The translations under genes were made by a program, and so were the position numbers. From NCBI GenBank assembly GCA_964187785.1, contig OZ076414.1, positions 38,936,001 to 39,000,000 on the forward strand: a DNA stretch of 64,000 bases, in the 5' to 3' direction. The stretch is from Amphiscolops sp. MND2022. Its lineage: Eukaryota. The first letter of the stretch is position 1; every line of letters begins with the position of its first letter. This document shows positions 1,654 through 63,200 of this stretch, in pieces. A model generated the notes under the pieces. It was not told the DNA's origin, made no database searches, and saw only the letters and a list, made by a program, of their open reading frames with translations.

Positions 1654-1654
1654 G

Positions 1655-12220: not shown

Positions 12221-12244
12221 CTTATATACAGATTTTATATATAA

Positions 12245-16713: not shown

Positions 16714-16715
16714 TT

Positions 16716-29320: not shown

Positions 29321-29533
29321 TATCCTCAGCTCCACGTGCTCTCTCTGCTGAACATTACATTCAGTTTTTTATACCGATCTGCATTCTTCTACAGGTATAG
29401 CCCGAAGAGTTTAAAACTTTGGCGGTTGAGTAGCCGAATTGAATATGGTTTATGAAGGCCTGTCTAGAGTCACAGATCTGAATTCAATTGCCATAGTGCT
29501 GTTTTTGCAATTTGATGTTTTTTAGTATCTCTA

Positions 29534-33153: not shown

Positions 33154-33224
33154 AACTACAGCATCAATTTGTCCAGCGTGTTCAGATGTAACATCGGATC
33201 TTCAATTGCCAAAAGTTCCAGAAA

Positions 33225-37220: not shown

Positions 37221-37769
37221 TCAGTCAATGAATCGAGAACCCACTCTTATTCAGAATTGAAAACAATCATTGAAAAAAAATTACCTATTATTTCTACCCC
37301 AGACAACCCCAAAAAAGCCCGAAAAAAATCATTGTTTTCAAAAGAAATTCTAAAAAATCAAACCGAACAATTAAAGTACTGACGATTGCCGAGCCTACGA
37401 GCATATTGGAAGCAATTTATCTGCAGCCATCAAAATTGGCAAATTTTTTGAAAATCACCCCTTTCAATTGGCACTGAGAAGATTATTAATTAATATCTGA
37501 CAGTTTTATTACTGAAAAAGACAAGAGAGATAGAGAAGAAGGAAAACCGGTGATAGAGCATTACTCACTTGTTAAAATACAGCGACTGGTCTTTTTTTCT
37601 TTGGGTCTTTACCAGTCACAGACGCTGATTTTATATTTTTAGCATTCAGCTTTTTGTTCGGTGAAAGCAATCTGTATGCCACATATTCTGCAATTAAGTG
37701 AATGTATTACCTCAATCGTATGAACACTTTAGACTGACCTAAACTACTCAACCACTAACCTTTTCTTTG

Positions 37770-38791
37770 CTGCTGCCGTTCCTGAAATTGCATGCGTACA
37801 TCTTTCAAATTATTCAACTTTCTCTGTTTATTTGAAACAGATGGCCGGCCTCTTTTAGATGGACTTTTTGGAGAATTTCCTGTTCGACATTGACACCAAT
37901 TGTCCGATTGCCTGTTTTGGAATTTTTAGCAGTTGCAAGAGCTTCAGAACACTTTTGAGGATTTGATTTCTTCAAACCTACTCTCAGGACTTCATTACAA
38001 ATGCCAAAATTTGGTGACTAAATGGGATTTTAAATGCCTGTCCGTAACATCGTTAGCTTCCCAACCACTATCAAGAAAAGATCCAGTTGAAATAGTCAGG
38101 ACAGAATGAGCGCACAAAGATGGTTGAATTATCATATCAGAGACATCAGTGATGTGATAGAAAATATTTTTCTCACAAGGTAATTTTGGACCCTTCAATA
38201 CCCAGCTGACGAAAGACTCGATCGTGGAAGTCATAGCAAACAATCTACTTGATGCAGCACCGCGTTTGGCTATCATGAACAATTTCCTGCCGATGGGAGT
38301 TAGAGAAACAGATATGTCCCCGCCCTCTTCTACGTGACCATCAGTGAACCAACGTCCAACGCCAATAATTGCTGAGGAATGAGCGCCTTTGACATGACTA
38401 GGTGCAGTGTAGAAGCTCAGTCCTGTCATATCTAATGAACTAGCAAAGGATGTGGATAAATCTTCAACTGGGTTTATTTTTTTTGTTTCTCTTGTGGCAG
38501 TATTATATTTGAATTTTCGGAAGATTGCAGCTAATTGGCGCTTATTGGTGCATTTTTGGACAGCTCGCAAAAATTCTTCATCAAATTTAAATAGACGCTG
38601 ATTGCAGACAAAATTGGTTGGCAAATCCAGACATCATCAAAAATATCTAAACTACTATTATGCGCCTCCTCTTTGATCGAATTCAAATCAAAGCAATTAG
38701 TGCCATCTATTGTTGCAAGCGAATTCCAACCCAAATCTTTCATTCCCTCGCTGGAACTGCACAGTTGAATCAATGAATCCAAATCTGACAT
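37770..38791 (-). pseudogene. Divergent JmjC-domain gene carried antisense between BEL-B pol and the 3' LTR (core ORF 37995-38624)
   Basis: FTDGHVEEGG...GRKLFMI...DMIIQPSLCAHSVLT gives T94, H97, E99, K114, H173. A frameshifted N-terminal ORF lies at 38531-38791 and a frameshifted basic tail with KRGRP at 37842-37856. Confidence 0.75.
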
Positions 38792-41769: not shown

Positions 41770-42660
41770 AAAATTTCGACTACTTATGCAATCGCGTCGT
41801 TTTTTTTTCTACCGACCTTTCATGAAAATTTCAAATTTCTCGAAAACTGCCCATAAGATTTTCAAAAAAATTTGCACAGTCATTCTACACCCAAAGAGGC
41901 CCCTGCATGCGCAAAGGCATCAAAATCGTATGACTGGGATGTGAGAAATATAGCCAAAATTAGGCCAAAAAACAGCAATTTTTCAACTTTTTTCGATTTT
42001 GCAAAAAAACTCCATATTAGAGTCCTATATGTGCAATGGCATCAAAATCGTATGGCTGGGATGTGAGAAACATAGCCAAAATTAGCCCAAAAATGGTCAA
42101 AAAAGGGCCATTTTTCGACTTCAGAAGGAAAAAGACTCCTTTACCGCACATGCGGCTCTGGTTTTTTTTTGTTTTTTTCTCCCGACCTTTTCATGAAAAT
42201 TTCAAATTTCTCAAAAACTGTCCATACGATTTTCACGAAATTTTGCACAGTCATTCTACACCCAAAGGGGCCCCTGCGTGTGCAAAGGCATCAAAATCGT
42301 ATGGCCTGGATGTGAGAAACATAGCCAAAATTAGCCCAAAAATGGCCAAAAAACAGCCATTTTTCGACTTTTTTCGATTTTCTCAAAAACTCCATACGAT
42401 TCGAACGAAATTTTCTACATTTATTCTACACCATATTAAAGTCCTATTTGTGCAATGGCATTAAAATCGTATGGCTGGGATGTGAGAAACATAGCCAAAA
42501 ATAGCCCAAAAATGGCCAAAAAACAGCCATTTTTCGTCTTTTTTTGATTTTCACAAAAACTGTCCATATGATTCGAAATTTTCTACAGTCATTTTTTACA
42601 CCATAACATGGTCCTATGTGTGCAATTTCAATAAATTCGTATGACTGGGATTCGAGCGAG
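41770..42660. repeat. Imperfect tandem repeat block (GCATCAAAATCGTATGGCTGGGATGTGAGAAACATAGCCAAAATTAG core, 4-5 copies)
   Basis: The core recurs at ~41915, 42035, 42285 and 42462, and partially at 42625. Confidence 0.8.
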
Positions 42661-43571: not shown

Positions 43572-43862
43572 TTTTTGCACATGACGAAGTCAATGTGCAT
43601 TGCAGTCCAGCTAAGAAACTTTTTTTTCCACAATAGCCAACTTCATAATAAGCGCCTTTTAGAGAAGCCAAAACCCCAGAGAGATTCGAACCTGCAGCCT
43701 CCCGATTGCGCGGCATAAGTGTTAACCACTGTGCCATAAGGACGTTATTGAATAAAGTTGAACTGTTGAATATATACGCATGCGATTAAAATAATATATA
43801 TACGCATATTAAAATAATCGTTGTCTTCGTCATGTGTTGCGAAGCACCGCTTCGCCTCTGTG
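43572..43862 (+). mobile_element. HINE/DINE-like Helentron-associated element containing a tRNA-like segment
   Basis: Subterminal inverted repeat CACATGACGAAG (43578-43589)/CTTCGTCATGTG (43825-43836), 3' hairpin GCGAAGCACCGCTTCGC (43839-43855). Interrupts the module GTCCACTTTT-TTACAAT that is intact at ~60955 and ~61860. Confidence 0.7.
43672..43743 (-). other. tRNA-derived pseudogene or SINE-head-like sequence (A and B boxes)
   Basis: The minus strand has TGGCACAGTGG (A box) and GGTTCGAATC (B box) at tRNA spacing, but the acceptor and T stems pair poorly. Confidence 0.55.
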
Positions 43863-44039
43863 TTACAATTTGTTCATCTGTTCTGTTGTTCATCTTCGAC
43901 TAAATTTCTGAAGCCGGAGAGCGGGGGAGTAGTTTGTGTATATATATTCATTGAAAATCGCAGGGGGGGGGTTTGAAATTTTACCAAAAATTTATGATTA
44001 AAATAAGTTCTAAACACAAATTACGTTTAAATTCGAGTA

Positions 44040-44490
44040 ATTGAAAACACTTTCTAAAAAATGTTCTTGCTGTGCTGAAGAAAAAAAATTTCAAGAAAAT
44101 CTGGTGAACACCAACCCCTCTCTCCCCCCCCCTCCTCCACATGCAAAAATTGAAAAAATTTGAAAATCTTACAAAAACTCCGGAAAGTATATGGAACAAT
44201 CAGAAATGAAAAAAAACGCATCGTTGACTCAAAAAACAAAAAAACGATAAAAAAACTGTCAAAAATGTAAACACACCTCCCCCCCTCCATACTCTACTGC
44301 AAAAAAATCGAAAAATTATTTTTTTTCAAAAAAAAACAGAAACAGTGGGGAATATCCCCAAATGTGATGAAACGCATCGTTGGCGTCAGAAACCCGAAAA
44401 AAATTCTCAAAAACGTAAACACACCCCCCTCCATCTATACCCTACATGCAAAAAATCGAAAAATTTAAAAAAATTTCAAAAAAACCCGGA
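44040..44490. repeat. Subterminal ~150-bp tandem repeats with C-runs (mirrored at ~59660-60110)
   Basis: AAACAC..CCCCCTCCA...TGCAAAAAATCGAAAAATT recurs three times. Confidence 0.7.
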
Positions 44491-44999
44491 AATGGTGCGA
44501 AACGTTAAAAAATGTTAAAAACGTGCAATCATCAAAAATGATGGAAAAGGTCCCCGTGAACACTTACTGAAGACATGTAAAATCTCAAAAATGGAAAAAA
44601 AATCTGAAATACACTCAGTTCAACTTGGAATTTTTTCGCAATTGGGTGCAAGTTTTTGACCGTGTAAGACAACTAGAATCAAACTTATAGAAATATGTTT
44701 TTTCTGTAGACACCTCATTCCTCCGGCAATCATTCATCCGAAATAAGAAACTCAAATTCAAGAGTGTCTATGACTTGTCAACTCATTTTTTACCTGCTGA
44801 CTGAGTATCTATGAATCGAAGCAAAGCCGCATTATGCAAAGTTTGATATGAAGCAATTTATGGCGTTTATACATATCCATACTGACCAACGAAGTTAAAA
44901 TTCTTGAAACTCTTTGACCCTGAAAACCTTGGTTCATCTTGTCTTCGACCATGAATATCATGTATGTCATGTTTATGCAGTTGTGTTTATGCAAAAATT

Positions 45000-45735
45000 G
45001 AAAATCAGTCCTATACGACCATAGAATCTTGGCTACTTTAGACCTATAGTATGGTACTGTATATTGAAAGATAGATTGAAAATCGGTCCTATGCGACCGG
45101 ATTCATCGAGTCTCAGCTACTTTAGACCTATAGTATGGTACTGTATATTGAAAGATAGATTGAAAATCGGTCCTATGCGACCGGATTAATCGAGTCTCAG
45201 CTACATTAGACCTATTGTATGGTCCTGTATATTGAAATATAGATTGGATATCAGTCGTATACGACCGTGTTTATCCAGTCTTAGCCGTTTCGGAACTATA
45301 GTATGGTCCTGTATAATGAAAATAGATCAAAAATAACTCCATTTCGACCGAGTTCATCGAATCTTAACCACTTTAGACTTATACTATAGTCCTGTATATT
45401 GAAAGATAGATTGGATATCAGTGCTATACGACCGTGTTTATCGAGTCTTGGCTACATTAGACCTATACTATGATACTGTATTTTGAAAGACAGATCAAAT
45501 ATAAGTCCTATACGACCGTGTTTATCCAGTATTAGCCATTTTAGACCTCTAGTATGGTACTGTATATTGAAAGATAGATTGAATATCAGTTCTATACGAC
45601 CGTGTTCATCAATTCTTAGCGACTTTAGACCTATATGATAGTCCTGTATAATAGAAGATAGATTGAATATCAGCCCTATACGACCGTGTTCATCGAATCT
45701 TGGCTATGTTAGACATATAGTATGGTTCTGTATAT
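45000..45735. repeat. ~84-bp tandem array, about 9 units (mirrored at ~58420-59160)
   Basis: TTAGACCTATAGTATGGTACTGTATATTGAAAGATAGATTG...TATACGACC repeats; unit starts at 45076, 45160 and 45244. Confidence 0.9.
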
Positions 45736-47334
45736 TGAGAGAGAGATGCATCAAAGATAGACTGGCAGCAATACATCAAAAGTATTTTTTGAAGTGTCAT
45801 ATACGATTCAAATGGTAAAACCCATCTTCGTGAAAAACGATATTTCAAGGATCAAAACATTTCTTGAAATCAAAAAATTCAAAGTGTGCTCCCTGAAAAT
45901 TTGGAAGCTTTTACGGGCTTCATTCTAGCATTTATGGAAACGATGAATCAAACGGTATCCCTTGAAGCACCATATTTGATCCAAGTGGTAAAACTCATCT
46001 CGAGAAAAAACGTTTCAAAGGAACAGAAGCGTTTTCAAAAAACGTAATAAAAAGTTCAAAGTGTGCTCCTTGAATAGTTGGGAGCTGATACGAGCTTTTA
46101 CCCAGCTTTTCGGGAAACGATGGATCAAGGAATGTCTTTTGAAGCATCATATACAATCCAAATGGCAAAACCCCAACGGTCAGAGCTCACGGACAGTAGA
46201 CCACCTGTATTTTTCCTCTAGATTACTACATAGCAAGTATTTCCCAATATCTAAAGTTTTACATTATCACGTATTATCCAATTTTTAGAGCTGTACGTTC
46301 TCTACCAATTATCTCCCGGTTAATGCAGAGAACAACATGGATGGTTTTGAATAATAAACTTTGCTATTTCCAAAAGTCTTGCGATCTCAACAACATGAGA
46401 CTGACAACATTTGTCAGTTAAAAAAGCAACTCTGAAGTGAGTCAGATTGAGTACGCAAAAACTCCGTTGAACAAGCTGAGGCACGTTCAACGCCTGTGCT
46501 AAACATTTACACATACTGTGTCGGTATCGCTTTTGAGCTTATCCAGCGTCGCGCTCTACAGAGTCTGTTTGCCTAATTCTTTTCAGATTGTTTGACTCAC
46601 TTTAAAAACAAATGCCGCTGAAAACACGCCTATTGAAGCTACTGTTTAGTGATTAATCACAAGTACAAAGGGCCGACGTCGCTTTCATGTTTACACAGCG
46701 TGTCGCTCTGTTTGTTCAATCTGGAATTTGTGACTACGGATATCTATATGCCACACTGGACACGCTTGTTGAAGCTACTGTTTAATGAATAACCTATAAA
46801 TACAAAGTGCCGGCGTCGCTTTCATGTTTACACAGCGTGTCGCTTTAATCAATATGGAATTGGCAACTACAGAGATCTATTGATCCAATATCAATCTTGC
46901 ATCCGGTCTGCTCGACCAAAACAAAAACAATCCATACTAAATTTGTTTACGATGAACTAGCGAATGGAATTGATTTGAATTTTGAGGTCTCGATGTTGTT
47001 TCAATCATTAGTATCTTGTTTCAAAACATTTATCAAATTTAGTGAATGAAAAAAGAATAGCAAGCCATTTCGGTGGTGTTAAAGTTTTGTGCCTGATGAA
47101 CATTGTTTTGTATGCAACAAGTTCTCTGTTGTGTCAAATGTCATTGAGCTTGAGTTTCAAGTATCTTGCCTGTTAATTTTTTTTCAGACATTTGTCTTGA
47201 GATCACCGGTAGCACAGCATAATCACCAGTCAAAATGTATCAGAAATCAGCCATGACTTTCAGCTCTCACATCCTCAAAAGATCTCGAGTTAGGAGATGC
47301 CCATATTGACCTGGCATCATCTGATAAACGACTT

Positions 47335-47616
47335 GTGGGCGTGACCACAAACACATATAAAAACAGCGGTCTTACATACATCAACATCAAGTTGTTCAAG
47401 AAAAAAGAGGATCAAGGTGACTTTCGCTTGCAACAGAGAGTGGGTCTCACTGTCAACGAGTTTCAGGAAATAATAGCGAATGTAGAAAACATTAGCATGG
47501 GCCCTCCGAATCCAGGTGGCACTACGGGGGAGAAGAAAATCAATAAGAGGATTGCTCAAAGCTATACGGAGGCTGCTGACGTCACGAAGCAAAAAACTGC
47601 AGATAAGAAGGAATGA
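47335..47616 (+). CDS. Small PC4-like ssDNA-binding protein candidate (mirror copy 56404-56700, minus strand)
   Basis: KRLVGVTTNTYKNSGLTYINIKLF...RVGLTVNEFQEI follows the PC4 beta-beta-beta-beta-alpha pattern. Judged by eye. Confidence 0.45.
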   Translation: MGVTTNTYKNSGLTYINIKLFKKKEDQGDFRLQQRVGLTVNEFQEIIANVENISMGPPNPGGTTGEKKINKRIAQSYTEAADVTKQKTADKKE

Positions 47617-48554
47617 AAAGTTGTACAATTCATTTCAAAAGTAATTACAGCATACAAGTTTTGTTATTGTTCCTAGTTTTAATCTGTTTTCATAACCATT
47701 AATTGTAGTAAGATACGTTTTTCGAATGTTTTTGTTTCTATTTCATTTTCCTTGTATCGGTACATCCCATCTTCTCGATCGTTTTTGTTTGATGAGAACT
47801 GTGCTATAATGCTTTCTTTTGTTTGCCCCAGATTGTGTCGTTTCTCCAATCTACCCTTTCTACCATTAGGTTTTTTATCATTTGTTTCCATTGCATACGC
47901 TCCTCTCCTCATTTACGTTCTATCCCATCTTATACTGTAACGTATCGATTTGAGTTCATTTCTGATGAAGTGTTGTTGTTCCCTTCCTGTGGTATCCTAT
48001 CTTTTTTGCAATTTTCACCTCATACGTTTAAATTAATTACTTGATTTATCTTTTTAATGTGCTTTATTCCATTTTCTCCTGTCGTTGTTTCAAATCTGTA
48101 CGTTAATGGAGTATTCAATATTTAGCTAATCCCCACTATTTCATTTGCTAGTGTCATGCTTTTGTTTAATCTCAAAGTCCAGTGAAGTAATTTATATTCG
48201 ATATAAACATTTTTTCACCTCGTTGGTTTTTGAATTAGTTTCATTCATCCCGAGTTTTGTTTTCGTTGTTGAGATAGTATTGGGTATTAAAAACACTTCG
48301 TGAAAAACTACCACAAAATTTTTCACACCTTTATATTTTATAGCAACATTGATGAAAAACATCCTTTTCCGAACAATTTGAGTAAAGGAATCTTTTCGGT
48401 GGCGTTTCTCAAGAATGTGCAAGCACCTTGAAACTCGAATTGTCTCATGCAACTGTAAAACCCGTGATCCAAGCAACTTTTTTTGTTTTTTGTATAGTCA
48501 ATGTGAAGTAATTGTATCAACTTTCGTTTACAGTTTTTTTGTAGACGAAAAATG

Positions 48555-49147
48555 GTGGAAGCAATGCATGAACAGCATCCGGACTTTTTCAAACAACATC
48601 GGAAAAATTTTCGGTACCCGGTGTTAGAAAAAGAACCAAGAATTGGGCTTGACATTCCCTCAGGATCAAATTACGCATTTGGAGTTCATTCTTTATCTGA
48701 TATGTGATCTATACCTCTGATTATCTGTGCGGCTTTGAGAAACAACCACACTACCATGTTCTTTTTGAGTGCGATTCCAGTAATAGAAAAGGTTACAATG
48801 TACCCTGCCTCTATTCAACTTTCTGTCTACTGTTGGTGGATTGTTCGAGTCTCGTTATGCAAGGTGAAATTATGAATCGTCTGCAGGTTGCAATGAAGTA
48901 CAACGTAAAAGAAAACAAAACCTTGCTAGCGCAGGGTCGACGCAAAGTTCCTGTTGTTCAAATCAGACGAGACAAAAGTGTTCAAACTGGTTTTTTGCCG
49001 ACTGCCACGTTTAGCCGATTTCAGCAGTTGATTCAAGGCCCATCAGCTGCAACTTTGTACAGAATCTTAGACATTCTCAATGACGGGTACGGAAGCATCA
49101 ACACTGCTAATTTGTATTTTTCGATTGACAATTCCAAAACTTTGTAA
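48555..49147 (+). pseudogene. HUH-endonuclease-like ORF, left-arm copy broken by a ~17-bp insertion near 48695
   Basis: EKQPHYHVLFEC and KYNVK motifs. Compared with the open mirror copy at 54893-55534. Confidence 0.4.
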
Positions 49148-49985
49148 AGCTTGCATAGTTTATGAGGAATACAATGTGGCATGAATATAATCTTCAAACC
49201 AGTATTTCCTTGTCAACTTCAGCCAGTGCTTGACAGCGAAAATTGTTTTTTAAGGATTAAAATCGAGCAGTCAGGTATAAATAAATTGGATCGTTGTGTA
49301 CTGACAGGTTTGCACTATCATTAAATCATCTGAACGCTGGTCACGCTTAGTAGTAAACTTTGTTTACATAATGAAATTGCGCCGTTAGATTCAAGCGAAT
49401 TGGATCATTGTGTAGTGGCATTTTAACGCTGTCATTAATTCATATGAATGTTGCGCATATTGTGACAGTGTGACGGAAGCTGTCAAAGCATGAAAAAGCA
49501 AGAGTATCAGATTCGCGACACTCGGAAACGAGAACTGGAATTTCATGCATGTAATTTAGTTCTGTACATGTACTGTCTAGCCAATGAGTCAGGTCAGATA
49601 TTGAGATATAGTACTCCAGGGTACAAGCGTGGTTTATTCAAGACTTTATACACAATGATTAAACTGCAACACATGCTTTGTTCGCCGTTGCAAAATTAAT
49701 TTTCTTTTCAACTCCGTCAAGCAACTCGTTCCAACCAGTTCTTTCAAGACTCAAAACTTCACGGTAGAGCAAAATCTTTGATAGAATGTGCCCACTCAAA
49801 CACATTATACTTTGGTTGTTCCCAAATCCAAAGGCGTTTAGTGTTAAGCAGAATTATTAACTCTCAAGCTCAGATATCAATCTAGAGGAGAAATAGAAAA
49901 CAACGAAAATGTATATTCGTTTTTGAGTTTTGATTTTTGGTGAACAATTGGGCACATTCTTCAACTTGTCAGCAATTGAGCTTGC

Positions 49986-50579
49986 ATGAAACTACCAATG
50001 CAGACTATCACTGGTGTGTCTGGTAACTCGCGGTTCACGTTTTATGAAACTTGGTTCAACAAAACAGTAGCAATAATTGAAGAAGAATGGTGGGAGGACG
50101 TCTGGTCGATAAAAAGCTCAGTTTCAATCCCAAAAGATTTGTTTATTCTGCTGCGAGAGGAATGTGTATCGGGAACTATTCCAAACAGCTTCAACCTAAC
50201 GGGCACTGTAGAAACGCCATTCACTACAACAATAGTTTATGATCGTTTCGAGCTGCCGTATGGTGTACGACAGCTTCTGTTTGACATTGACTGTCGAAAT
50301 ATACCCGTTTCAGAAAATGAGTTGGTTTGTATGATAGACTTTGAAAATTTAAAAAGTTACTGGGATATAAGAGGTACCCCTGAATCACCACAAGACGCTT
50401 CATGTTCTCTGTCGTCAAATATTGCCGACACAAACCAAGAGCAAATTGCTTGTGGCAGTCCAATCAAATCAGAAACTAGCCCAGTAAAGGAATGCCCGCC
50501 AGCGCCAAAGAAGAATAGAGTTGAAAAATTCAAAAGGACAGCATTGGAAATAGCAAAGCTTGATCTCGCAGACGTTTGA
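49986..50579 (+). CDS. Uncharacterised 197-aa protein, possibly with an N-terminal PC4-like fold (mirror copy 53465-54054 is frameshifted)
   Basis: ATG-initiated ORF conserved in both arms. RFTFYETW...VAIIEEEW...SVSIPKDLFILL pattern. Confidence 0.45.
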   Translation: MKLPMQTITGVSGNSRFTFYETWFNKTVAIIEEEWWEDVWSIKSSVSIPKDLFILLREECVSGTIPNSFNLTGTVETPFTTTIVYDRFELPYGVRQLLFDIDCRNIPVSENELVCMIDFENLKSYWDIRGTPESPQDASCSLSSNIADTNQEQIACGSPIKSETSPVKECPPAPKKNRVEKFKRTALEIAKLDLADV

Positions 50580-50947
50580 CAAACTTTCTTGATGTGATGT
50601 TTTATAACTTGTTTGTTTGTATCATCGTTCATATCATTGCTTCAACTTTGTCATTCAAGTCATTTTGTAATAAATTTTTCAGCCATTCTTTTCCAGTGCC
50701 TAGCTTGATCACCTCACAAGAGTAAACTTGTGCGGCTTTGAGCCCTTTGAATCGCTAAAGAAAATTGATATCAGAGTTTGTCTCAGCAATCAAACGCCGA
50801 GTGAGAGAAAATAACCAAACCTTGATGTGAATAACCCTTTACTTATATTTACTCTTCTAGGTGAAGCCATCTCTTTTCAGAAAACGGAAAATGATCAGAA
50901 AATTTTTTTGGAAAATTAACTTTCCAATGGTAATTTGAAGTCATCCC

Positions 50948-52116
50948 TTGTCTTTTTTTCAGAGTTTCTCCATGGAAAGCAACGCTTCAACTTCAAACTT
51001 GCCAGAGCAGCGAAACACTGAGGACCACATGGGTTTCAACCAAAATGAAGAGCCAATTGCCAGTTTCAACAAATTGCGAGACGAGGTTCTTTGCTTGAAA
51101 ATTCAAGTCTCTGAATTGCGAGATGAGTTGTGGTCACTAGCTAAAAAATTCCCCCTGCTCATTGTAAAAGTGTTCCAGTACATCCACTCAATGCAACTTA
51201 TTACTGCACGAATGCGAGAAGAGGTATCTGAACTGAGGAATGAGATGATTGAGATGAAAAGCGAAAACATTGTCTGTGAAACAATGAAAACCTCTGGCTC
51301 TACAAAAACTCTCGAGGTGGCGAGTAGAAGGATTGGAATAAAAGAAAGTAAACCTCAGCCTAAACTATTCAATGCAGCAAGAAGCAGTGGCGAAGTCAAG
51401 GAAAACGCAGCAAGCGGTAGCGAAATCAAGGGAAGCAGCTCGGTTAAACCTGTGGAAAGAGAAAGTCTGAACGAAGATGTCATAAAGCGTCAAAACGAAT
51501 TAATTGAAAGACACTCGAAAAAAAATGTTCCACTTGAACAATTTTCTCGCCATTTGCTCGAGCGTATAAAAAGTCTTGAATGTGGCCGTAATGGGTCAGT
51601 TGTTTGGAAACTCAGTGGCTTCAACCATATTTCCGAGGCGGCGAATAGAGCTGAAGTTAATTTCAAAAATTAAAAAGTGCCAACAGACTTTTGTAGTCCA
51701 ATAATTCTCACAGGTTCTCCCGGATATTCTTTGTATGTGAGACTATTTCCATTTGGATGCGAGGTGGCAGCTGGCAATCACGTTTCTGTTTTTGTTGCCC
51801 TAATTCCCGGAATGTATGATGCCATTCTCAAATGGCCATTCAAGTCTACAATCAAAATCAGCGTCATTAGTCAACATGATCCTGCTGATAGATGGACGCG
51901 ATCAATAGTCCCTAGTGAAAAAACTGGGAGCTGCTTCAAGCGTCCGTCTTCGTGTTAAGGAAACATGTCGGTTGGTATACTGCATTTCCTACCAGAGTAA
52001 GTTTGAATGAAATCGTGATCAATTTTTTTTCAAGCTTGTTACATGGATGCAGCAGAGATCATGGATACCTAAAGGAGGATGCAATGTTCATCGAAGTTAC
52101 ATTTTCAGCTGAATGA
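50948..52116 (+). pseudogene. TRAF-like gene (coiled coil plus MATH domain) with two in-frame stops and a short intron (51997-52034)
   Basis: GSVVWKLSGF, FCSP..TG.PGYSLYVRLFPFG...GNHVSVFVALIPG.YDAILKWPF, CFKRP. After splicing GTAAGT...TTCAAG the frame ends GYLKEDAMFIEV. Confidence 0.85.
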
Positions 52117-53094
52117 AGTATTTATTTTGTGAACAAAAATTTCAAGTTCGTTTTGTTTAATAATCTTGAAACAAATTTAAATATCAAACTGCAATTCCAA
52201 CCTAGTTTTCATGAGCTGCTATAGACGATAGGAATGCAAACGTTGACTGATGATACTCATTATACTCGATGATCAGAAAAGTTCCATCAGTGTATATCTT
52301 AAGTTTTTCCCGATTCAGGCTTCTTTAACCTCGATCGGTAACCTGTGAGCTATAATTTACAATATCAGTCGTTAGCGATACGTTATTAAAATGATAACAT
52401 CAGAGAGAGACCGTTTCAAACAAAACGGATATCACCTCGTTTTACCGGTGGAACTGGAAAATGGGTATCAAAATTAGTTCGGGTTCATATCGAAAGTACG
52501 AAAATAGATTGTCGTACCCAAACGTTTGAAAGAACTAGATTGAACATGGACCTTAAAAATTAGTTTTAAAATAGTCTGCTCTACTTCAGACAATGCCTGA
52601 TGGTGTACACACAAATTTATGTGATATTCTTCCGGACTCGACTGTGTGTTTTCGCAGACCCATATTGACGAATACTTGTACTAGACAATGCATAGCAATA
52701 ATAAAATTTGACAAGGAAGCGTTCGAGCACCTCAAGGCCTTCGCAGCTATTATCGTCAGTGAGCAAGAACTTAAATTGTGTGTCTTTAGTAAAACACACC
52801 TACAGTGTGAAGACGTGGGCTAAATTGAGGTAACGGTCGAACCTATTCTGGAGACAAGTTTCGGAGAAAGCTTATCAGTCTTTGTAGAATTGGTGGATCC
52901 AAACAAAAAGGAGTTCAAAGGTCCTTTCATCTTGTCAGTTTACTTGAAAGACGTCAGGAGCAAAGATGAAAAAAGTTTCAGGAGACAGATGGAAATTATT
53001 CTACCTGGCTACCGCGTCAAGCGAGCAATGAAACATTTAATTTTAGCAATCAATGCTACGTATTGGAGTTTGTATTCAACGACAAAAGTCTAAG

Positions 53095-56000
53095 AAGGGA
53101 TGACTTCAAATTACCATTGAAAAGTTAATTTTCCAAAAAAATTTTCTGATCATTTTCCCTTTTCTGAAAAGAGATGGCTTCACCTAGAAGAGTAAATATA
53201 AGTAAAGGGTTCTTCACATCAAGGTTTGGCTATTTTCTCTCACTCGGCGTTTGATTGCTGAGACAAACTCTGATATCAATTTTCTTTAGCGATTCAACGG
53301 GCTCAAAGCCGCACAATTTTACTCTTGTGAGGTGATCAAGCTAGGCACTGGAAAAGAATGGCTGAAAAATTTATTACAAAATGACTTGAATGACAAAGTT
53401 GAAGCAATGATATGAACGATGATACAAACAAACAAGTTATAAAACATCACATCAAGAAAGTTTGTCAAACGTCTGCGAGATCAAGCTTAGCTATTTCCAA
53501 TGCTGTCCTTTTGAATTTTTCAACTCTGTTCTTCTTTGGCGCTGGCGGACATTCCTTTACTGGGCTAGTTTCTGATTTGATTGGACTGCCACAAGCAATT
53601 TGCTCTTGGTTTGTGTCGGCAATATTTGACGACAGAGAACATGAAGCGTCTTGTGGTGATTCAGGGGTACCTCTTATATCCCAGTAACTTTTTAAATTTT
53701 CAAAGTCTATCATACAAACCAACTGATTTTCTGAAACGGGTATATTTCGACAGTCAATGTCAAACAGAAGCTGTCGTACACCATACGGCAGCTCGAAACG
53801 ATCATAAAGTATTGTTGTAGTGAATGGCGTTTCTACAGTGCCCGTTAGGTTGAAGCTGTTTGGATTAGTTCCCGATACACATTCCGCTCGCAGCAGAATA
53901 AACAAATCTTTTGGGATTGAAAGCCTTTCATCGACCAGACGTCCTCCCACCATTCTTCTTCAATTATTGCTATTGTTTTGTTGAACCAAGTTTCATAAAA
54001 TGTGAACCGCGAGTTACCAGACACACCAGTGATAGTCTGCATTGGTAGTTTCATGCAAGCTCAATTGCTGACAAGTTGAAGAATGTGCCCAATTGTTCAC
54101 CAAAAATCAAAACTCAAAAACGAATATACATTTTGGTTGTTTTCTATTTCTCCTCTAGATTGATATCTGAGCTTGAGAGTTAACAATTCTGCTTAACACT
54201 AAACGCCTTTGGATTTGGGAACAACCAAAGTATAATGTGTTTGAGTGGGCACATTCTATCAAAGATTTTGCTCTACCGTGAAGTTTTGAGTCTTGAAAGA
54301 ACTGGTTGGAACGAGTTGCTTGACGGAGTTGAAAAGAAAATTAATTTTGCAACGGCGAACAAAGCATGTGTTGCAGTTTAATCATTGTGTATAAAGTCTT
54401 GAATAAACCACGCTTGTACCCTGGAGTACTATATCTCAAAATCTGACCTGACTCATTGGCTAGACAGTACATGTACAGAACTAAATTACATGCATGAAAT
54501 TCCAGTTCTCGTTTCCGAGTGTCGCGAATCTGATACTCTTGCTTTTTCATGCTTTGACAGCTTCCGTCACACTGTCACAATATGCGCAACATTCATATGA
54601 ATTAATGACAGCGTTAAAATGCCACTACACAATGATCCAATTCGCTTGAATCTAACGGCGCAATTTCATTATGTAAACAAAGTTTACTACTAAGCGTGAC
54701 CAGCGTTCAGATGATTTATTGATAGTGCAAACCTGTCAGTACACAACGATCCAATTTATTTATACCTGACTGCTCGATTTTAATCCATAAAAAACAGTTT
54801 TCGCTGTCAAGCACTGGCTGACGTTGACAAGGAAATACTGGTTTGAAGATTATATTCATGCCACATTGTATTCCTCATAAACTATGTAAGATTTACAAAG
54901 TTTTGGAATTGTCAATCGAAAAATACAAATTAGCAGTGTCGATGCTTCCGTACCCGTCATTGAGAATGTCTAAGATTCTGTACAAAGTTGCAGCTGATGG
55001 GCCTTGAATCAACTGCTGAAATCGGCTAAACGTGGCAGTCGGCAAAAAACCAGTTTGAACACTTTTGTCTCGTCTGATTTGAACAACAGGAACTTTGCGT
55101 CGACCCTGCGCTAGCAAGGTTTTGTTTTCTTTTACGTTGTACTTCATTGCAACCTGCAGACGATTCATAATTTCACCTTGCATAACGAGACTCGAACAAT
55201 CCGCCAACAGTAGACAGAAAGGTGAATAGAGGCAGGGTACATTGTAACCTTTTCTATTACTGGAATCGCACTCAAAAAGAACATGGTAGTGTGGTTGTTT
55301 CTCAAAGCCGCACAGATAATCAGAGGTTAAAGAATGAACTCCAAATGCGTAATTTGATCCTGAGGGAATGTCAAGCCCAATTCTTGGTTCTTTTTCTAAC
55401 ACCAGGTACCGAAAATTTTTCCGATGTTGTTTGAAAAAGTCCGGATGCTGTTCATGCATTGCTTCCACCATTTTTCGTCTACAAAAAAAACTGTAAACGA
55501 AAGTTGATACAATTACTTCACATTGACTATACAAAAAAAGTTGCTTGGATCACGGGTTTTACAGTTGCATGAGACAATTCGAGTTTCAAGGTGCTTGCAC
55601 ATTCTTGAGAAACGCCACCGAAAAGATTCCTTTACTCAAATTGTTTGGAAAAGGATGTTTTTCATCAATGTTGCTATAAAATATAAAGGTGTGAAAAATT
55701 TTGTGGTAGTTTTTCACGAAGTGTTTTTAATACCCAATACTATCTCAACAACGAAAACAAAACTCGGGATGAATGAAAGTAATTCAAAAACCAACGAGGT
55801 GAAAAAATGTTTATATCGAATATTCATTACTTCACTGGACTTTGAGATTAAACAAAAGCATGACACTAGCAAATGAAATAGTGGGGATTAGCTAAATATT
55901 GAATACTCCATTAACGTACAGATTTGAAACAACGACTGGAGAAAATGGAATAAAGCACAATAAAAAGATAAATCAAGTAATTAATTCAAACGTATAAGAG

Positions 56001-59000
56001 GTGAAAATTGTAAAAAAAGATAGGATACCACAGGAAGGGAACAACAACACTTCATCAGAAATGAACTCAAATCGATACGTTACAGTATAAGATGGGATAG
56101 AACGTAAATGAGGAGAGGAGCGTATGCAATGGAAACAAATGATAAAAAACCTAATGGTAGAAAGGGTAGATTGGAGAAACGACACAATCTGGGGCAAACA
56201 AAAGAAAGCATTATAGCACAGTTCACATCAAACAAAAACGATCGAGAAGATGGGATGTACCGATACAAGGAAAATGAAATAGAAACAAAAACATTCGAAA
56301 AACCTATCTTACTACAATTAATGGTTATGAAAACAGATTAAAACTAGGAACAATAACAAAACTTGTATGCTGTAATTACTTTTGAAATGAATTGTACAAC
56401 TTTTCATTCCTTCTTATCTGCAGTTTTTTGCTTCGTGACGTCAGCAGCCTCCGTATAGCTTTGAGCAATCCTCTTATTGATTTTCTTCTCCCCCGTAGTG
56501 CCACCTGGGTTCGGAGGGTCCATGCTAATGTTTTCTACATTCGCTATTATTTCCTGAAACTCGTTGACAGTGAGACCCACTCTCTGTTGCAAGCGAAAGT
56601 CACCTTGATCCTCTTTTTTCTTGAACAACTTGATGTTGATGTATGTAAGACCACTGTTTTTATATGTTTGTGGTCACGCGGACAAGTCGTTTATCAGATG
56701 ATGCCACGTCAATATGGGCATCTCCAAACTCGAGATCTTTTGAGGATGTGAGAGAGCTGAAAGTCATGGCTGATTTCTGATACATTTTGACTGGTGATTA
56801 TGCTGTGCTACCGGTGATCTCAAGACAAATGTCTGAAAAAAAATTAACAGGCAAGATACTTGAAACTCAAGCTCAATGACATTTGACACAACAGAGAACT
56901 TGTTGCATACAAAACAATGTTCATCAGGCACAAAACTTTAACACCACCGAAATGGCTTGCTATTCTTTTTTCATTCACTAAATTTGATGAATGTTTTCGA
57001 ACAAGATACTAATGATTAAAACAAAATCGAGACCTCAAAATTAAAATCAATTCCATTCGCTAGTTCATCGTAAACAAATGTAGTATGGATTGTTTTTGTT
57101 TTGGTCGAGCAGACCGGATGCAAGATTGATATTGGATCAATAGATCTCTGTAGTTGCCAATTCCATATTGATTAAATAAAGCGACACGCTGTGTAAACAT
57201 GAAAGCGACGCCGGCACTTTGTATTTATAGGTTGTTCATTAAACAGTAGCTTCAACAAGCGTGTCCAGAGTGGCATATAGATATCCGTAGTCACAAATTC
57301 CAGATTGAACAAACAGAGCGACACGCTGTGTAAACATGAAAGCGTTGCCGGCCCTTTGTACTTGTGATTAATCACTAAACAGTAGCTTCAACAAGCGTGT
57401 CCAGAGTGGCATATAGGTATCCGTAGTCACAAATTCCAGATTGAACAAACAGAGCGACACGCTGTGTAAACATGGAAGCGACGTCGGCCCTTTGTACTTG
57501 TGATTAATCACTAAACAGTAGCTTCAATAGGCGTGTTTTCAGCGGCATTTGTTTTTAAAGTGAGTCAAACAAACTGAAAAGAATTAGGCAAACAGACTCT
57601 GTAGAGCGCGACGCTGGATAAGCTCAAAAGCGATACCGACACAGTATGTGTAAATGTTTAGCACAGGCGTTGAACGTGCCTCAGCTTGTTCAGTGGAGTT
57701 TTTGCGTACTCAATCTGACTCACTTCAGAATTGCTTTTTTAACTGACAAATGTTGTCAGTCTCATGTTGTTGAGATCGCAAGACTTTTGAAAATAGCAAA
57801 GTTTATTATTCAAAACCATCCATGTTGTTCTCTGCATTAACCGGGAGATAATTGGTAGAGAACGTACAGCTCTAAAAATTGGATAATACGTGATAATGTA
57901 AAGCTTTAGATATTAGGAAATACTTGCTATGTAGTAATCTAGAGGAAAAATACAGGTGGTCTACTGTCCGTGAGCTCTGACCGTTGGGGTTTTGCCATTT
58001 GGATTGTATATGATGCTTCAAAAGGCATTCCTTGATCCATCGTTTCCCGAAAAGCTGGGTAAAAGCTCGTATCAGCTCCCAACTATTCAAGGAGCACACT
58101 TTGAACTTTTTATTACGTTTTTTGAAAACGCTTCTGTTCCTTTGAAACGTTTTTTCTCGAGATGAGTTTTACCACTTGGATCAAATATGGTGCTTCAAGG
58201 GATACCGTTTGATTCATCGTTTCCATAAATGCTAGAATGAAGCCCGTAAAAGCTTCCAAATTTTCAGGGAGCACACTTTGAATTTTTTGATTTCAAGAAA
58301 TGTTTTGATCCTTGAAATATCGTTTTTCACGAAGATGGGTTTTACCACTTGAATCGTATATGACACTTCAAAAAATACTTTTGATGTATTGCTGCCAGTC
58401 TATCTTTGATGCATCTCTCTCTCAATATACAGAACCATACTATATGTCTAACATAGCCAAGATTCGATGAACACGGTCGTATAGGGCTGATATTCAATCT
58501 ATCTTCTATTATACAGGACTATCATATAGGTCTAAAGTCGCTAAGAATTGATGAACACGGTCGTATAGAACTGATATTCAATCTATCTTTCAATATACAG
58601 TACCATACTAGAGGTCTAAAATGGCTAATACTGGATAAACACGGTCGTATAGGACTTATATTTGATCTGTCTTTCAAAATACAGTATCATAGTATAGGTC
58701 TAATGTAGCCAAGACTCGATAAACACGGTCGTATAGCACTGATATCCAATCTATCTTTCAATATACAGGACTATAGTATAAGTCTGAAGTGGTTAAGATT
58801 CGATGAACTCGGTCGAAATGGAGTTATTTTTGATCTATTTTCATTATACAGGACCATACTATAGTTCTAAAACGGCTAAGACTGGATAAACACGGTCGTA
58901 TACGACTGATATCCAATCTATATTTCAATATACAGGACCATACAATATGTCTAATGTAGCTGAGACTCGATTAATCCGGTCGCATAGGACCGATTTTCAA

Positions 59001-60224
59001 TCTATCTTTCAATATACAGTACCATATTATAGGTCTAAAGTAGCTGAGACTCGATGAATCCGGTCGCATAGGACCGATTTTCAATCTATCTTTCAATATA
59101 CAGTACCATACTATAGGTCTAAAGTAGCCAAGATTCTATAGTCGTATAGGACCGATTTTCAATTTTTGCATAAACACAACTGCATAAACATGACATACAT
59201 GATATTCATGGTCGAAGACAAGATGAACCAAGGTTTTCAGGGTCATAGAGTTTCAAGAATTTTAACTTCGTTGGTCAGTATGGATATGTATAAACGCCAT
59301 AAATTGCTTTATATCAAACTTTGCATAATGCAGCTTTGCTTCGATTCATAGATACTCAGTCAGCAGGTAAAAAATGAGTTTACAAGTCATAGACACTCTT
59401 GAATTTGAGTTTCTTATCTCGGATGAATGATTGCCGGAGGAATGAGGTGTCTACAGAAAAAACATATTTCTATAAGTTTGATTTTAGTTGTCTTACACGG
59501 TCAAAAACTTGCACCCAATTGCGAAAAAATTCCAAGTTGAACTGAGTGTATTTCAGATTTTTTTCCATTTTTGAGATTTTACATGTCTTCAGTAAGTGTT
59601 CACGGGGACCTTTTCCATCATTTTTGATGATTGCACGTTTTTAACAACTTTTTTGAACGTTTCGCACCATTTCCGGGTATTTTGAATTTTTTTTAATTTT
59701 TCGATTTTTTGCATGCAGGGTATAGATGGAGGGGGGTGTGTTTACGTTTTTGACAATTTTTTTCGGGTTTCTGACGCCAACGATGCGTTTCATCACATTT
59801 GGGGATATTCCCCACCGTTTCTGTTTTTTTTTGAAAAAAAATTTTTCGATTTTTTTGCAGTAGAGTATGGAGGGGAGGGGGGGAGGTGTGTTTACATTTT
59901 TGACAGTTTTTTATCGTTTCTTTGTTTTTGATGTCAACGATGCGTTTTTTCATTTCTGATTGTTCCAGATACTTTCCCGAGTTTTTGTAAGATTTTCAAT
60001 TTTTTTCAATTTTTGCATGTGGAGGGGGGGGGAGGGAGGGGTATTTCACCAGATTTTCTTGAAATTTTTTTTCTTCAGCACAGCAAGAAAATTTTCTAGA
60101 AAGTGTTTTTAATTACTCGAATTTAAACGTAATTTGTGTTTAGAACTTATTTTAATCATAAATTTTTGGTAAAATTTCAAACCCCCCCCTGCGATTTTCA
60201 ATGAATATATATACACAAACTACT
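53095..60224 (-). repeat. Right arm (~7.1 kb) of the giant inverted repeat
   Basis: Reverse complement of 43928-50949 with scattered SNPs and indels and one extra ~136-bp unit (57180-57500). Confidence 0.95.
54893..55534 (-). CDS. HUH-endonuclease-like protein candidate (open copy)
   Basis: 213 aa frame (probable start MVEAM) with a P-H-Y-H-V-L-F motif and Y-N-V-K about 50 aa downstream. Confidence 0.4.
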   Translation of the reverse strand: MYSQCEVIVSTFVYSFFCRRKMVEAMHEQHPDFFKQHRKNFRYLVLEKEPRIGLDIPSGSNYAFGVHSLTSDYLCGFEKQPHYHVLFECDSSNRKGYNVPCLYSPFCLLLADCSSLVMQGEIMNRLQVAMKYNVKENKTLLAQGRRKVPVVQIRRDKSVQTGFLPTATFSRFQQLIQGPSAATLYRILDILNDGYGSIDTANLYFSIDNSKTL

Positions 60225-63200
60225 CGGGGGTTCGATTCTCGCACTAAACCATAATATTTTTATGCTTCCAAAAGTACAGGTGAGACCAAAGGGTCCCCCC
60301 TTTGGGTTTTTTTCGGCACTCTGCGATTTTTTTCGAAAATTTTCGAATATCATCAAAGGGTACCCCTTGCATTTTTTGAAGTTTTCGGTTTGTAAAAAAC
60401 GTTTAATGGGCCTAAATGACCTCTTTTTGGGTTTTTCGGCACTGTGTGACTTTAATCGAATACTTTAAAAATATATATTTTTTTTTCAAATGCTTCCAAT
60501 AGTTGTTTTCGGCGTAGTGAGACTTTTTTTCGCAAATTTTTCAAATGTCTCCAAAGGGTCCCCCCTTCATTTTTTCCTATTTTTCCAAAGAATGGATGTT
60601 TATAAACTCCCAAATGCCCCCTTTTACATTTGTCGGCACTGTGTGACTTTTTTTCGAAAGAAAAAATTTTCGAAAATTTCAAGTTTTTTTCCAAAAAATT
60701 TTGCGCTTTTTGAGCCTTAGATATAGCGCCGACTTTAGACGTTCCCGTCTTGTTTATTAGTCGGCGCCTTTTCCCTTAAGGAAAAAAGCCCGACTATTAC
60801 AGTGGGTAGTTTTTAGTCGGCGCCTTTTCCTGTAAGGTAAGAAGCCCGACTATTACAGTGGCTAGTTTTTAGTCGGCGCCTTTTCCCTTAAGGAAAAAAG
60901 CCCGACTCTTACAGTGAGTAGTTTTTTTTTTCAGTTGACAATCTCACTCTGAGTGGTCCACTTTTCTTACAATTTTTGTTCATCTTTCATATTTGTTCAT
61001 CTTTCATCTTCGACCCAGCCGGAGAGCGTGGGTTCGAATCCCGCACTAAACCATAAATTTTTTAATGAGTTTTTCGGCATTGTGCGACCTAAAAAATACT
61101 TTTTTTCGAAAAAAAATCAAAATTTTTTTTTTGAAAAAAAATTTTTTTTTCCAAATTTTTCCAATAGTTGTTCCTTGAATATTTTTGAGCCTAACATATG
61201 GCGCCGACTTGGGACGTTCCCGTCTTGTTTTTTTTTCGTCAGACCACAGAGCTCATCGCGTATGTACCACTTTTTACAGAAACTGGTAAGACTACTCAGG
61301 CCAAGTCAGGCCAATGGAAACTTAGTGCAAAGGGTCCCCTCTTTCATTTTTTACCTTTTTTACGTAACCTACAAAACCGGAAAAGACCAAAGGGTCCCCC
61401 TTTTCAATTTTTTCGGCACTACGAAATTTTTTTTCGAAACTTTTTTAAGGTGTCAAGAGTCCCCCCTTCGAGTTTTTTTGATATTTTGCAACAGAATGTA
61501 TGTTAATGAATCCCAAAGGGTCCCCCCTTTTCATTTTTTGGCACTATGTGACATTTTCGAAGTTTTTTTCAAAAAAATTCCAAATTTTCTTTTGTTCCCA
61601 GTCGGGAAACAGTGATTTTCCAGTCATATCGACCATGAAAGGCACACTTTGGGTGTCTCGAAAGTGTTTTCAAAGCTTTTCATGAATTCGTCCTGAGCAT
61701 ATTTAGAAAACTTTGCGCTTCTTGAGCCTTAGATATAGCGCTGACTTTAGACGTTCCCGTCTTGTCTTTAGTCGGCGCCTTTTCCCTTAAGGAAAAAAGC
61801 CCGACTCTTACAGTGAGTAGTTTTTTTTGTTTTTTTTTCAGTTGACAATCTCACTCTGAGTGGTCCACTTTTCTTACAATTTGTTCATCTTTCATGTTTG
61901 TTCATCTTCGACCCAGCCGGAGAGCGTGGGTTCGATTCTCGCACTAAACCATAAATTTTTTAATGCTTCTAAAAGTACAGGTGAGACCGAAGGGTCCCCC
62001 CTTTGGGTTTTTTTTCGGCACTATGCGACTTTTTTCGAAAATTTTTGAAATTTATCAAAGGGTACCCCCTTGCATTTTTTTGAAGTTTTCGGTTTGTAGA
62101 AAACGGTGAATGTGCCTGAATGGCCTCTTTTTGAGTTTTTCGGCATTGTGCGACTTAAAAAATACTTTTTTCGAAAAAAAATTTCAAAAATAATTTTTTT
62201 CAAAAAATTTTTTTTTCAAAATTTTCCAATAGTTGATCCTTGAATATTTTTGAGCCTAAGATATGGCGCCAACTTGGGACGTTCCCGTCTTGTTTCTTTT
62301 TCAGCCTACAATCTCACTCTGAATGGTCCACGTTTCTTACAATCTTTGTTCATTTGTTCAACTAATTTTCTGAGAAGCCGCAGATCGATTCTGGGTTCGA
62401 TTCTCGCACTAAACCACAAATTTTTTATGCTTCCAAAAGTAGATGCGAGACCGAAGGTTTTCTTTCGTTTGATTTTTTTCGTTTTTTTCGGCACTATGAG
62501 ACTTTTTTTCGAAAATTTTCGGATTCTATCAAAGGGTAACCCCCTGCATTTTTTTGAAGTTTTCAGTTTGTAAAAACGTTTAATGAGCCTGAATGGCCTC
62601 TTTTTGAATTTTTCGGCATTGTGCGACTTTTTAAAAAAAATTTCCAAATGTTTCCAATAGTTGTTCTTTGAATATTTTTGAGCCTTAGATATGGCGCCGA
62701 CTTGAGACGATTCCGTCTTGTTTTTTTTTCAGTTGACAATCTCACTCTGAGTGGTCCACTTTTCTTACAATTTTCATAAATTTTTGAAAATCTCTTGATA
62801 ATGGCGCAAAAGTTTGTAACGTCTTTTTACATCATCTGAAAAACTCCACGGTACCTAAGGGTACTCCCTTTGAGTACTTTTCGGCTCTGTGAGACTTTTT
62901 TTCGAAAAAAATTTTTTCCCCAAAGGGTCCCCCTTCAATTTTTTAGTTTTCCGACAGAACGGATGTTGAAAAATCCCAAAGGGTCCCCCCTCTCAGTTTT
63001 TTCGGCATTGTGAGACTTTTTTTCAAATTTTTTTTTCACCAAAAGTGTCCCTCCTTCATTTTTTTAATGATTTGCGACAGAATGGATTTGGTGGTTTCCC
63101 ATCTGGTGCGCCAATTCGGTTCAACTTTTGGGGTTTTCCGGTACCATAGAAGAGAATACTTTGACACTTTGAAGTCCTTTTGCTGTTTTTGACCCTTAGA

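Follow-up and report, generated by a model that had tools for sequence, protein, structure and literature searches.

A palindromic, probably non-autonomous Polinton/Maverick-type element with long gene-bearing arms in Amphiscolops sp.

Introduction

How does a DNA element move when it carries the ends of a Polinton/Maverick and no detectable core gene, and how did most of it come to be the mirror image of itself? These questions are raised by a 16,297-bp element at positions 43928–60224 of a 64,000-nucleotide stretch of the Amphiscolops sp. MND2022 genome (assembly GCA_964187785.1, contig OZ076414.1, forward strand, 38,936,001 to 39,000,000), which is called the window here and supplies all coordinates below. 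An initial annotation made from the sequence alone described a near-perfect palindrome with Polinton ends and interpreted it as a snap-back derivative integrated by a helper. We conclude that it is a non-autonomous Polinton/Maverick-type element moved by Polinton machinery in trans, a reading to which we assign a probability of about 0.8. The origin of its arms is a separate matter and is weighed in the Discussion.

Vertebrate Mavericks are reported to end most commonly in (AGT)2//(ACT)2, to be flanked by a 6-bp target site duplication (TSD), to have a mean length of 16,862 ± 1,678 bp (range 12.7–24.6 kb) and to bear terminal inverted repeats (TIRs) of 46–1,447 bp (PMC8097293). For Polintons, TIRs of 100–1,500 bp are given (PMC10748475), and they reach 1.5–2 kb in published descriptions. 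Mavericks were reported to make up 4.5% of one acoel assembly (PMC6451197).

Results

Structure of the element and its insertion site

Self-BLAST of the window and a global alignment of the arms reproduced the annotated palindrome to the base. The left arm (43928–50949, plus strand, 7,022 bp) starts with AGTAGT, and the right arm (53095–60224, minus strand, 7,130 bp), an inverted copy of the left, ends with ACTACT. Together the arms make up 87% of the element and enclose an unpaired spacer of 2,145 bp (50950–53094). The inverted self-BLAST matches were 43927–46880 with 60225–57277 (97.0% identity) and 46624–50949 with 57400–53095 (97.7%), separated solely by a difference of one 136-bp repeat unit. 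Read directly, the borders are CGGGGG/AGTAGT...ACTACT/CGGGGG, as first annotated, and the two TSD copies lie at 43922–43927 and 60225–60230 (both given on the plus strand). The termini are thus the first of the two pairs, (AGT)2//(ACT)2 or (AG)3//(CT)3, that serve as the Polinton end-motif criterion in PMC8097293. The total length is likewise close to the Maverick mean cited above, in line with the initial description of about unit length. Two random flanking 6-mers would be identical with a probability of 0.0013.

When the flanks were joined without the element and without one 6-bp copy, the product aligned gaplessly at the junction with the paralogous empty sites 61879–61991 and 60975–61064, which carry CGTGGG once. 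Removal of 5 bp left a 1-nt gap and removal of 0 bp a 6-nt gap, which supports a TSD length of 6. A third paralogous empty site, at 62346–62455, is more diverged, and the flank adjoining the right TSD copy continues the host repeat. Since the flanks without the element and one 6-bp copy match these sites gaplessly, the element entered the host repeat as a single unit; the uninterrupted target sites claimed at the outset are genuine. No third copy of the terminal 400 bp occurs within the 64-kb window, and Rfam and ARAGORN gave no match in it.

The arms contain several repeat modules. Subterminal low-complexity, imperfect repeats with a spacing of approximately 150–250 bp lie at 44122–44497 (plus; mirror at approximately 59694–59947). 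They are followed by an 84-bp tandem array of 8.7 copies at 45020–45747 (plus; mirror 58413–59133, 8.6 copies), by two diverged copies of an approximately 172-bp unit at 45775–46171 (plus; mirror 57989–58385) and by a 136-bp tandem unit present in about 2 copies at 46624–46880 (plus) and in 2.9 copies in the right arm (57140–57536), the sole large indel between the arms.

Approximately 190 bp to the left of the element, at about 43670–43740 (minus), lies a tRNA-like head with A-box and B-box-like motifs; it is probably part of a short interspersed nuclear element. The insertion site itself sits just before another B-box-like motif.

Divergence between the arms

The global alignment gave 104 mismatches in 6,974 aligned positions (1.49%), and 78 in 6,318 (1.23%) from position 44600 inwards. 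There were 19 indel events, nine of them within the homopolymer-rich first 670 bp and one a whole 136-bp repeat unit. When clustered mismatches were merged, 78 events remained and were evenly spread (interior dispersion p = 0.56). A mismatch excess in the outer 600 bp was not significant after merging (p = 0.07–0.15), and the idea that these 600 bp are older, original TIRs was rejected on this result. Coding differences in the three reading frames of the arms were synonymous to non-synonymous in a ratio of 7:15, with 24% synonymous expected under neutrality (p = 0.45), and no CpG-driven excess was found among the arm differences (13 of 104). The lesions in the genes differ from arm to arm. Two pairs of long terminal repeats (LTRs) in the window differ at 3/229 and 5/241 positions, similar to the approximately 1.2% between the arms. 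Among the relatives that were fetched, the arms are each other's best match (140/143 and 86/87 residues). Because the differences are even and neutral, they fit arms that were identical at insertion and decayed neutrally afterwards, and the argument of the initial annotation that scattered differences speak against a read fold-back is borne out. The 7-kb arms could be used for insertion dating as an LTR-like clock.

Search for core genes

No stop-to-stop frame in the element exceeds 244 aa, far below the size of a protein-primed polymerase (pPolB). Six core-protein motif patterns gave only two mirror matches in the element, both in non-coding terminal sequence. A Pfam scan of 23 element open reading frames (ORFs), out of 59 in the window, detected no polymerase, integrase, ATPase, protease or capsid family, and the same scan did detect integrase (rve) and reverse transcriptase domains in the neighboring retroelements. 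There was no Walker A or protease motif in the coding frames and no Pfam or PHROG match for a packaging ATPase, cysteine protease or capsid protein. Neither ORF-B nor ORF-C, the two frames without a family assignment, is long enough for a major capsid protein, and no helicase was found in the element. These searches used motifs and Pfam/PHROG profiles and not tBLASTn with real Polinton proteins, so that short decayed remnants could escape them. The element thus falls outside the definition of an autonomous Polinton, with no pPolB or integrase found and TIRs about five times too long. Since no integrase was found while the TSD and the empty sites show unit insertion, insertion in trans, as initially proposed, is the reading that we retain. 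The statement that the element lacks core genes holds for these motif and Pfam scans; the element is not gene-free, however, as each arm has three genes and the spacer holds a TRAF-type gene together with another frame that is also broken.

Genes of the arms and the spacer

The gene at 47257–47616 (plus; mirror frame 56404–56673, minus) has small frame-shifting indels near its 5' end in both arm copies. A structure predicted from 24 clusters of its homologues (first row P0038) is confident at approximately residues 20–90. The top seven structural matches were PC4, Sub1, phage T5 PC4 and Pur-alpha (Z 5.8–6.6, root-mean-square deviation (rmsd) 2.4–5.2, 63–80 residues aligned). In Foldseek, PC4 homologues led as well, with a best E-value of 1.7e-3 in the PDB and of 7.7e-5 to a phage single-stranded DNA-binding protein (SSB), the best viral match. 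Pfam PC4 itself was a weak match (3 of 24 members, E 0.026). By its predicted structure, the gene encodes a PC4 fold (beta-sheet plus C-terminal helix) with putative single-stranded DNA binding. The best Pfam name, Herpes_gI (14 of 24 members), was rejected, being below the cut-off and contradicted by the fold; PDB sequence searches gave only chance matches to phosphatases.

The second arm gene, ORF-A, is interrupted near 48.7 kb in the left arm (48552–49147, plus) and open in the right (54893–55471, minus; 192 aa). It gave no usable assignment in Pfam, PHROG, PDB sequences or the Atlas. A structure predicted from 62 sequences (pLDDT, a per-residue confidence score, 91.8) shows an N-terminal domain similar to HUH-Rep or origin-binding domains, with an HYH motif, and a small C-terminal domain. 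For residues 15–112, Rep HUH or E1/T-antigen origin-binding domains filled 14 of the top 15 rows and all of the top 24 rows in two structural searches. The scores are weak (Z 3.0–4.8, rmsd 3.1–5.3; the best Z, 4.8, has rmsd 3.3 over 77 aligned residues and is middling on the search tool's own scale). No viral model was matched in Foldseek at E<=0.001; those rows that bore a name were Rep/NS1 proteins. The HxH motif (His61, His63) is kept in 59/62 and 58/61 sequences, and His46, Cys54 and Cys80 are conserved as strongly. The Tyr at the motif-III position (82) is present in 41/62, any Tyr in that helix in 47/62 and Lys86 in 25/62; Pfam Rep_OBD matches 2/62 members weakly (E 0.079). On the model, a Rep-like fold, the near-invariant His46, Cys54, His61, His63 and Cys80 may together bind a metal, and the protein is perhaps a putative origin-binding protein rather than a proven nickase. 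We found 37 close clusters with 196 member sequences. The wider family has 158 representatives at E<=1e-3 (50% identity library), mostly of 180–230 aa when full length. The element brings to light a protein family that carries no annotation, has a predicted Rep-like fold and is paired here with a PC4-type SSB.

ORF-B, the third arm gene, is an open frame of 199 aa at 49980–50579 (plus), and its right-arm copy (53465–54060, minus) is frame-shifted; it has no match in Pfam, PHROG or the Atlas. In the spacer, a TRAF-type gene with a coiled coil and a MATH domain (50972–52116, plus) is broken into three frames. Its assignment rests on Pfam TRAF-mep_MATH (E 7.1e-19) and on PDB TRAF domains (best E 7.9e-12). 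For related midsize DNA viruses, a figure legend likewise names a gene predicted to be similar to TRAF (PMC8502044). ORF-C (52575–53093, plus) consists of two open stretches in one frame with a stop between them, and no family was found for it in Pfam, PHROGs or the Atlas/PDB scans. All five frames of the left arm and spacer, the PC4-like gene, ORF-A, ORF-B, TRAF and ORF-C, are co-oriented.

Relatives of the element

Homologue searches covered ORF-A, the PC4-like gene and TRAF. Apart from the window's own, all homologue clusters are tagged ENA, one of them also Logan; sequences from more than one assembly, and from transcriptomes or transcripts, may be pooled in the member counts. The PC4-like gene has 60 clusters (178 member sequences) and the TRAF gene 12 (61 member sequences), among them P0099 with 325 aa. 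The cluster that is led by the truncated TRAF protein of the window has four members. Shared contigs were inferred from equal size, which does not prove that two contigs are the same. By this measure, 12 of 33 ORF-A contigs recur among the 57 PC4-like contigs, and three of 11 TRAF contigs recur among the arm-gene matches. Arm genes outnumber the spacer gene approximately 3 to 1. Judged from these matches, ORF-A, the PC4-like gene and TRAF form a dispersed linked module, and the recurrence of TRAF contigs among the arm-gene matches marks TRAF as cargo of the family rather than a captured host fragment.

Seven pairs of clusters fall on the same contig by size. In four of them the two members are closest or tied-closest relatives (105/108, 106/108, 72/76 and 65/70 residues), and these pairs lie in subfamilies 80–88% identical to the window's genes. 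One same-contig pair, on a 25-kb contig, has a shared shifted C-terminus. Since the genes are multicopy and closest-relative pairs share contigs as the window's arms do, other two-armed elements probably exist in other subfamilies, and this copy is probably no one-off.

Open ORF-A and PC4-like relatives (P0007, P0009, P0013, P0014, P0018 and P0068–P0085) are 55–70% identical and lie on contigs of 0.6–9 kb, many shorter than 3 kb. These short contigs may be transcripts of related subfamilies or species, which would mean that the genes are expressed somewhere. In P0097, a PC4-like piece runs on into the flanking host repeat. A 170-bp tandem repeat region occupies 41802–42651 of the window, and the ORF-A relative P0019 contains part of this region as an in-frame fusion. 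As far as the sequences of P0019 and P0097 tell, other copies have lost part of their sequence or lie nested within the same host repeats.

Neighboring features in the window

A direct duplication of at least 5.1 kb (1–5146 and 10934–16086) has 11 mismatches in 5,146 bases. A partial third copy at 20314–23127, approximately 95.5% identical, forms the 3' portion of a BEL/Pao element. Within BEL/Pao, an antisense frame of approximately 285–293 aa lies between the integrase and the 3' LTR (21592–22452, 15280–16161 and 4340–5194, minus). It has a weak JmjC Pfam match (E about 1e-4; 22.9 bits against a cut-off of 24) and no PDB sequence match; to judge from its sequence, it is possibly a retrotransposon-carried 2-oxoglutarate dioxygenase. 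A Copia element at approximately 23345–29252 lies inside the 3' LTR of the BEL/Pao element 16471–23345 and is bordered by a 5-bp duplication (AGAGG). The LTRs of this Copia element differ at 3/229 positions and apparently end in GA, not CA. A second BEL/Pao element (31853–39119) has TG...CA ends, a 5-bp duplication (AGTAG), LTRs that differ at 5/241 positions and a pol in several broken frames. The sole clear host-type gene in the window is an intronless frame of 532 aa for a Major Facilitator Superfamily transporter at 29516–31114 (plus; Pfam E 5.5e-34). The TRAF, BEL/Pao and Copia content marks the host as an animal, and the repeats that flank the element are reminiscent of acoel flatworm genomes.

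Discussion

Origin of the palindrome

How the arms arose is less certain than the placement of the element among Polintons, and we lean slightly towards copy-back during protein-primed terminal replication, because the co-oriented left 9.2 kb looks like one parental end and the total length is at the family mean. An active Polinton in the cell would begin strand-displacement synthesis at a terminus. After approximately 7 kb the polymerase would switch template, or a broken displaced strand would be completed on the inverted end, and the core module (pPolB, integrase, ATPase, protease and capsids) would be replaced by a mirror of the accessory end. With an origin and an integrase end at each terminus, the product could fold as a single strand into a 7-kb panhandle with a 2.1-kb loop and be copied by the helper polymerase. 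A panhandle model of Polinton replication forms the background to this step. The PC4-type SSB and Rep-like origin-binding folds encoded in the arms would be replication accessories of the parent, insufficient for movement alone. A Polinton-type retroviral integrase acting in trans would have inserted the unit with the 6-bp duplication that is seen together with the ends and the empty sites, and the identical arms then decayed neutrally to approximately 1.2%. Of the initial snap-back interpretation, the palindromic geometry stands; copy-back, or panhandle, is the closer term, because the 2.1-kb loop is unpaired (PMC13506859).

Several observations weigh against this interpretation. The final stop of ORF-C lies 1 bp short of the right arm, a position equally compatible with the natural end of a gene and with a break at random. 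A relative of the TRAF gene with an N-terminal extension, P0103, matches the window from 50951 onward, that is, from the start of the spacer and not from the arm end. Judged from this sequence, the junction of left arm and spacer may likewise be a new one, and from a single copy-back just one new junction is expected. No clear inverted microhomology was found within the spacer ends (longest 6 bp). An autonomous partner was not seen, and no arm gene was tied to pPolB or integrase in searches that included no eukaryotic genome collection. The idea of PC4 as a Polinton accessory gene drew no support from a literature search, whose sole match, PMC11662393, uses 'PC4' as a cluster label. Among the same-contig pairs, the other three of seven are 70–80% identical and rank 2, 3 and 10, and tandem duplication also occurs in the host genome (1–5146 and 10934–16086), so that such pairs need not be inverted arms.

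Some of these points would be expected if the parent family natively had giant gene-bearing TIRs of approximately 7 kb around a core, this copy being an internal deletion with the spacer as central remnant, moved in trans. The ORF-C stop at the arm boundary, the roughly threefold excess of arm genes over the spacer gene and the closely matched same-contig pairs in several subfamilies (4/7, 80–88% identical to the window genes) fit such a family, and butterfly polintons are described with gene-bearing TIRs of 2 kb (10.1101/2025.02.07.637071). However, the full element would hold approximately 14 kb of arms plus a core, at or above the 12.7–24.6 kb of intact vertebrate Mavericks (PMC8097293), although a cited group size of up to 40 kb softens this objection (PMC6431247). 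A 16.3-kb outcome would need chance or selection, and P0103 has no arm sequence upstream of TRAF; we regard this history as rather unlikely. It is improbable that the element belongs to a separate fold-back class in which the HUH-fold protein and the SSB drive rolling-hairpin or rolling-circle copying and another transposase inserts the product. The best structural matches of ORF-A are almost all Rep HUH domains, its HxH is kept in 59/62 and 58/61 sequences, the arms hold modular tandem repeats, as fold-back elements do, and some viruses of polinton-like virus (PLV) size are reported to pair HUH genes with retroviral integrases (10.64898/2026.06.19.733378). Yet the Z-scores are low (best 4.8), the motif-III Tyr is found in 41/62 without an invariant Lys after it, and the element contains no NANTATTAC-type rolling-circle origin nonanucleotide. 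Moreover, HUH transposons are described as mostly lacking a TSD, and the repeats of Replitrons as short and direct (PMC10288648), whereas the ends and the 6-bp TSD here match Polintons exactly.

The palindrome might also have formed in place, if a normal Polinton was inserted and later double-strand-break repair invaded the opposite TIR, copied the left end rightward and deleted the core. This accounts for the intact TSD and flanks without a mobile palindrome, and a single locus cannot distinguish the two. It would be a rare local accident, however, and yet matched pairs occur on other contigs, and the cluster headed by the window's truncated TRAF protein has four members; as terminal and interior arm divergence are approximately equal, the duplication would also have to follow closely on insertion. 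We consider in-place repair quite improbable. An artefact, whether a fold-back read or the head-to-head joining of two haplotypes or of family copies, deserves attention since long inverted repeats of a multicopy family assemble poorly. From a fold-back read one would expect arms without differences and flanks that mirror each other. Here 104 substitutions and one 136-bp unit separate the arms, and yet they are closest to each other among the fetched relatives. The mirror ends exactly at the element borders, where the flanks continue the empty paralogous site. The assembly resolves the 5.1-kb duplication with 11 mismatches, and the inner junction has no homology for an assembler to join. Because the arms differ and the mirror stops at the borders, an artefact of assembly or amplification is very unlikely.

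Copy-back, which we continue to prefer, invites an extension that we put forward tentatively and think doubtful. There may be a lineage of giant palindromic Polinton satellites, copy-back genomes held near unit length through packaging in helper capsids, which turned into a mobile family of tens to approximately 100 germline copies. An SSB and a Rep-like origin-binding protein would then come with each arm, and long double-stranded RNA directed against the parent could arise from the inward-facing arms. If this is true, such elements are integrated defective-interfering genomes of an animal DNA virus, missed by screens for pPolB and integrase or by TIR caps at 2.5 kb. One published screen starts from co-located integrase and pPolB (PMC8097293), and a second accepts only elements with hallmark genes and with TIRs of no more than 2,500 bp (PMC11131425); either would skip elements of this kind. 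Maverick particles are stated not to have been observed (PMC8097293). Polinton replication and packaging are known mainly through gene content, and a cleanly integrated, core-less palindrome of unit length would be a fossil of a replication intermediate. If many copies of approximately 16 kb with different inner junctions exist, they would be indirect evidence for replication from terminal origins, template switching and a capsid size limit.

Comparison with known systems

No palindromic core-less Polinton was found in the literature searched, which did not include supplements or Repbase, so that absence from print is not established. In the same literature the wording 'non-autonomous Polinton/Maverick' was met only in a paper on Tlr1 (PMC5499653). 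Rearrangements driven by Polintons with 744-bp TIRs have been reported and differ in structure from the element (PMC11414722). For an integrated PLV without a detectable integrase, the use of one in trans has been proposed (PMC11296320). Transpovirons and Tlr1, relatives that lack capsid genes or a polymerase, are similar to the element in being linear and TIR-bounded, in having lost modules and in depending on another virus or element; they are described as non-palindromic and as keeping a superfamily 1 helicase, whereas no helicase was found here (PMC5499653). Replitrons and other HUH transposons have a small stand-alone HUH-fold protein with a second domain, which ORF-A may resemble, but short direct repeats and mostly no TSD are described there, and the Replitron, Helitron and IS91 types have neither long TIRs nor a TSD of fixed length, in contrast to the 7-kb inverted repeats, the 6-bp TSD and the variable Tyr of ORF-A (PMC10288648).

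Among virus-like genomes, copy-back or snap-back defective viral genomes carry one end as its reverse complement, form a panhandle or palindrome and need a helper (PMC13506859). Unlike them, the element is a germline insertion with a TSD and apparently one of a dispersed family. Closer to the element than such defective viral genomes are adenovirus genomes with a duplicated left end and the palindromic derivatives that protein-primed yeast plasmids form. Short non-autonomous Polintons have been described in Repbase. Fold-back elements of the Mutator-like (MULE) or P/Galileo type have 7–10-bp TSDs and ends specific to their superfamilies, whereas the TSD here is 6 bp.

Butterfly polintons share with the element gene duplication in long TIRs and mobility without a core gene. 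They include mobile copies without polB, keep most of the core and bear the core genes hexon and adenain in TIRs of approximately 2 kb (10.1101/2025.02.07.637071); the arms studied here are 3.5 times longer and contain accessory genes only, with no core gene found. With Polintons/Mavericks proper, the element shares its (AGT)2//(ACT)2 ends, 6-bp TSD, TIRs, 16.3-kb size and accessory cargo genes. It differs in its arms of 7,022 and 7,130 bp in place of TIRs of approximately 50–1,500 bp, in the absence of detected core genes and in being palindromic over 87% of its length. The ends, TSD and size are thus of a known type, and what is probably new is a core-less palindrome with unusually long gene-bearing arms, itself probably one of a family.

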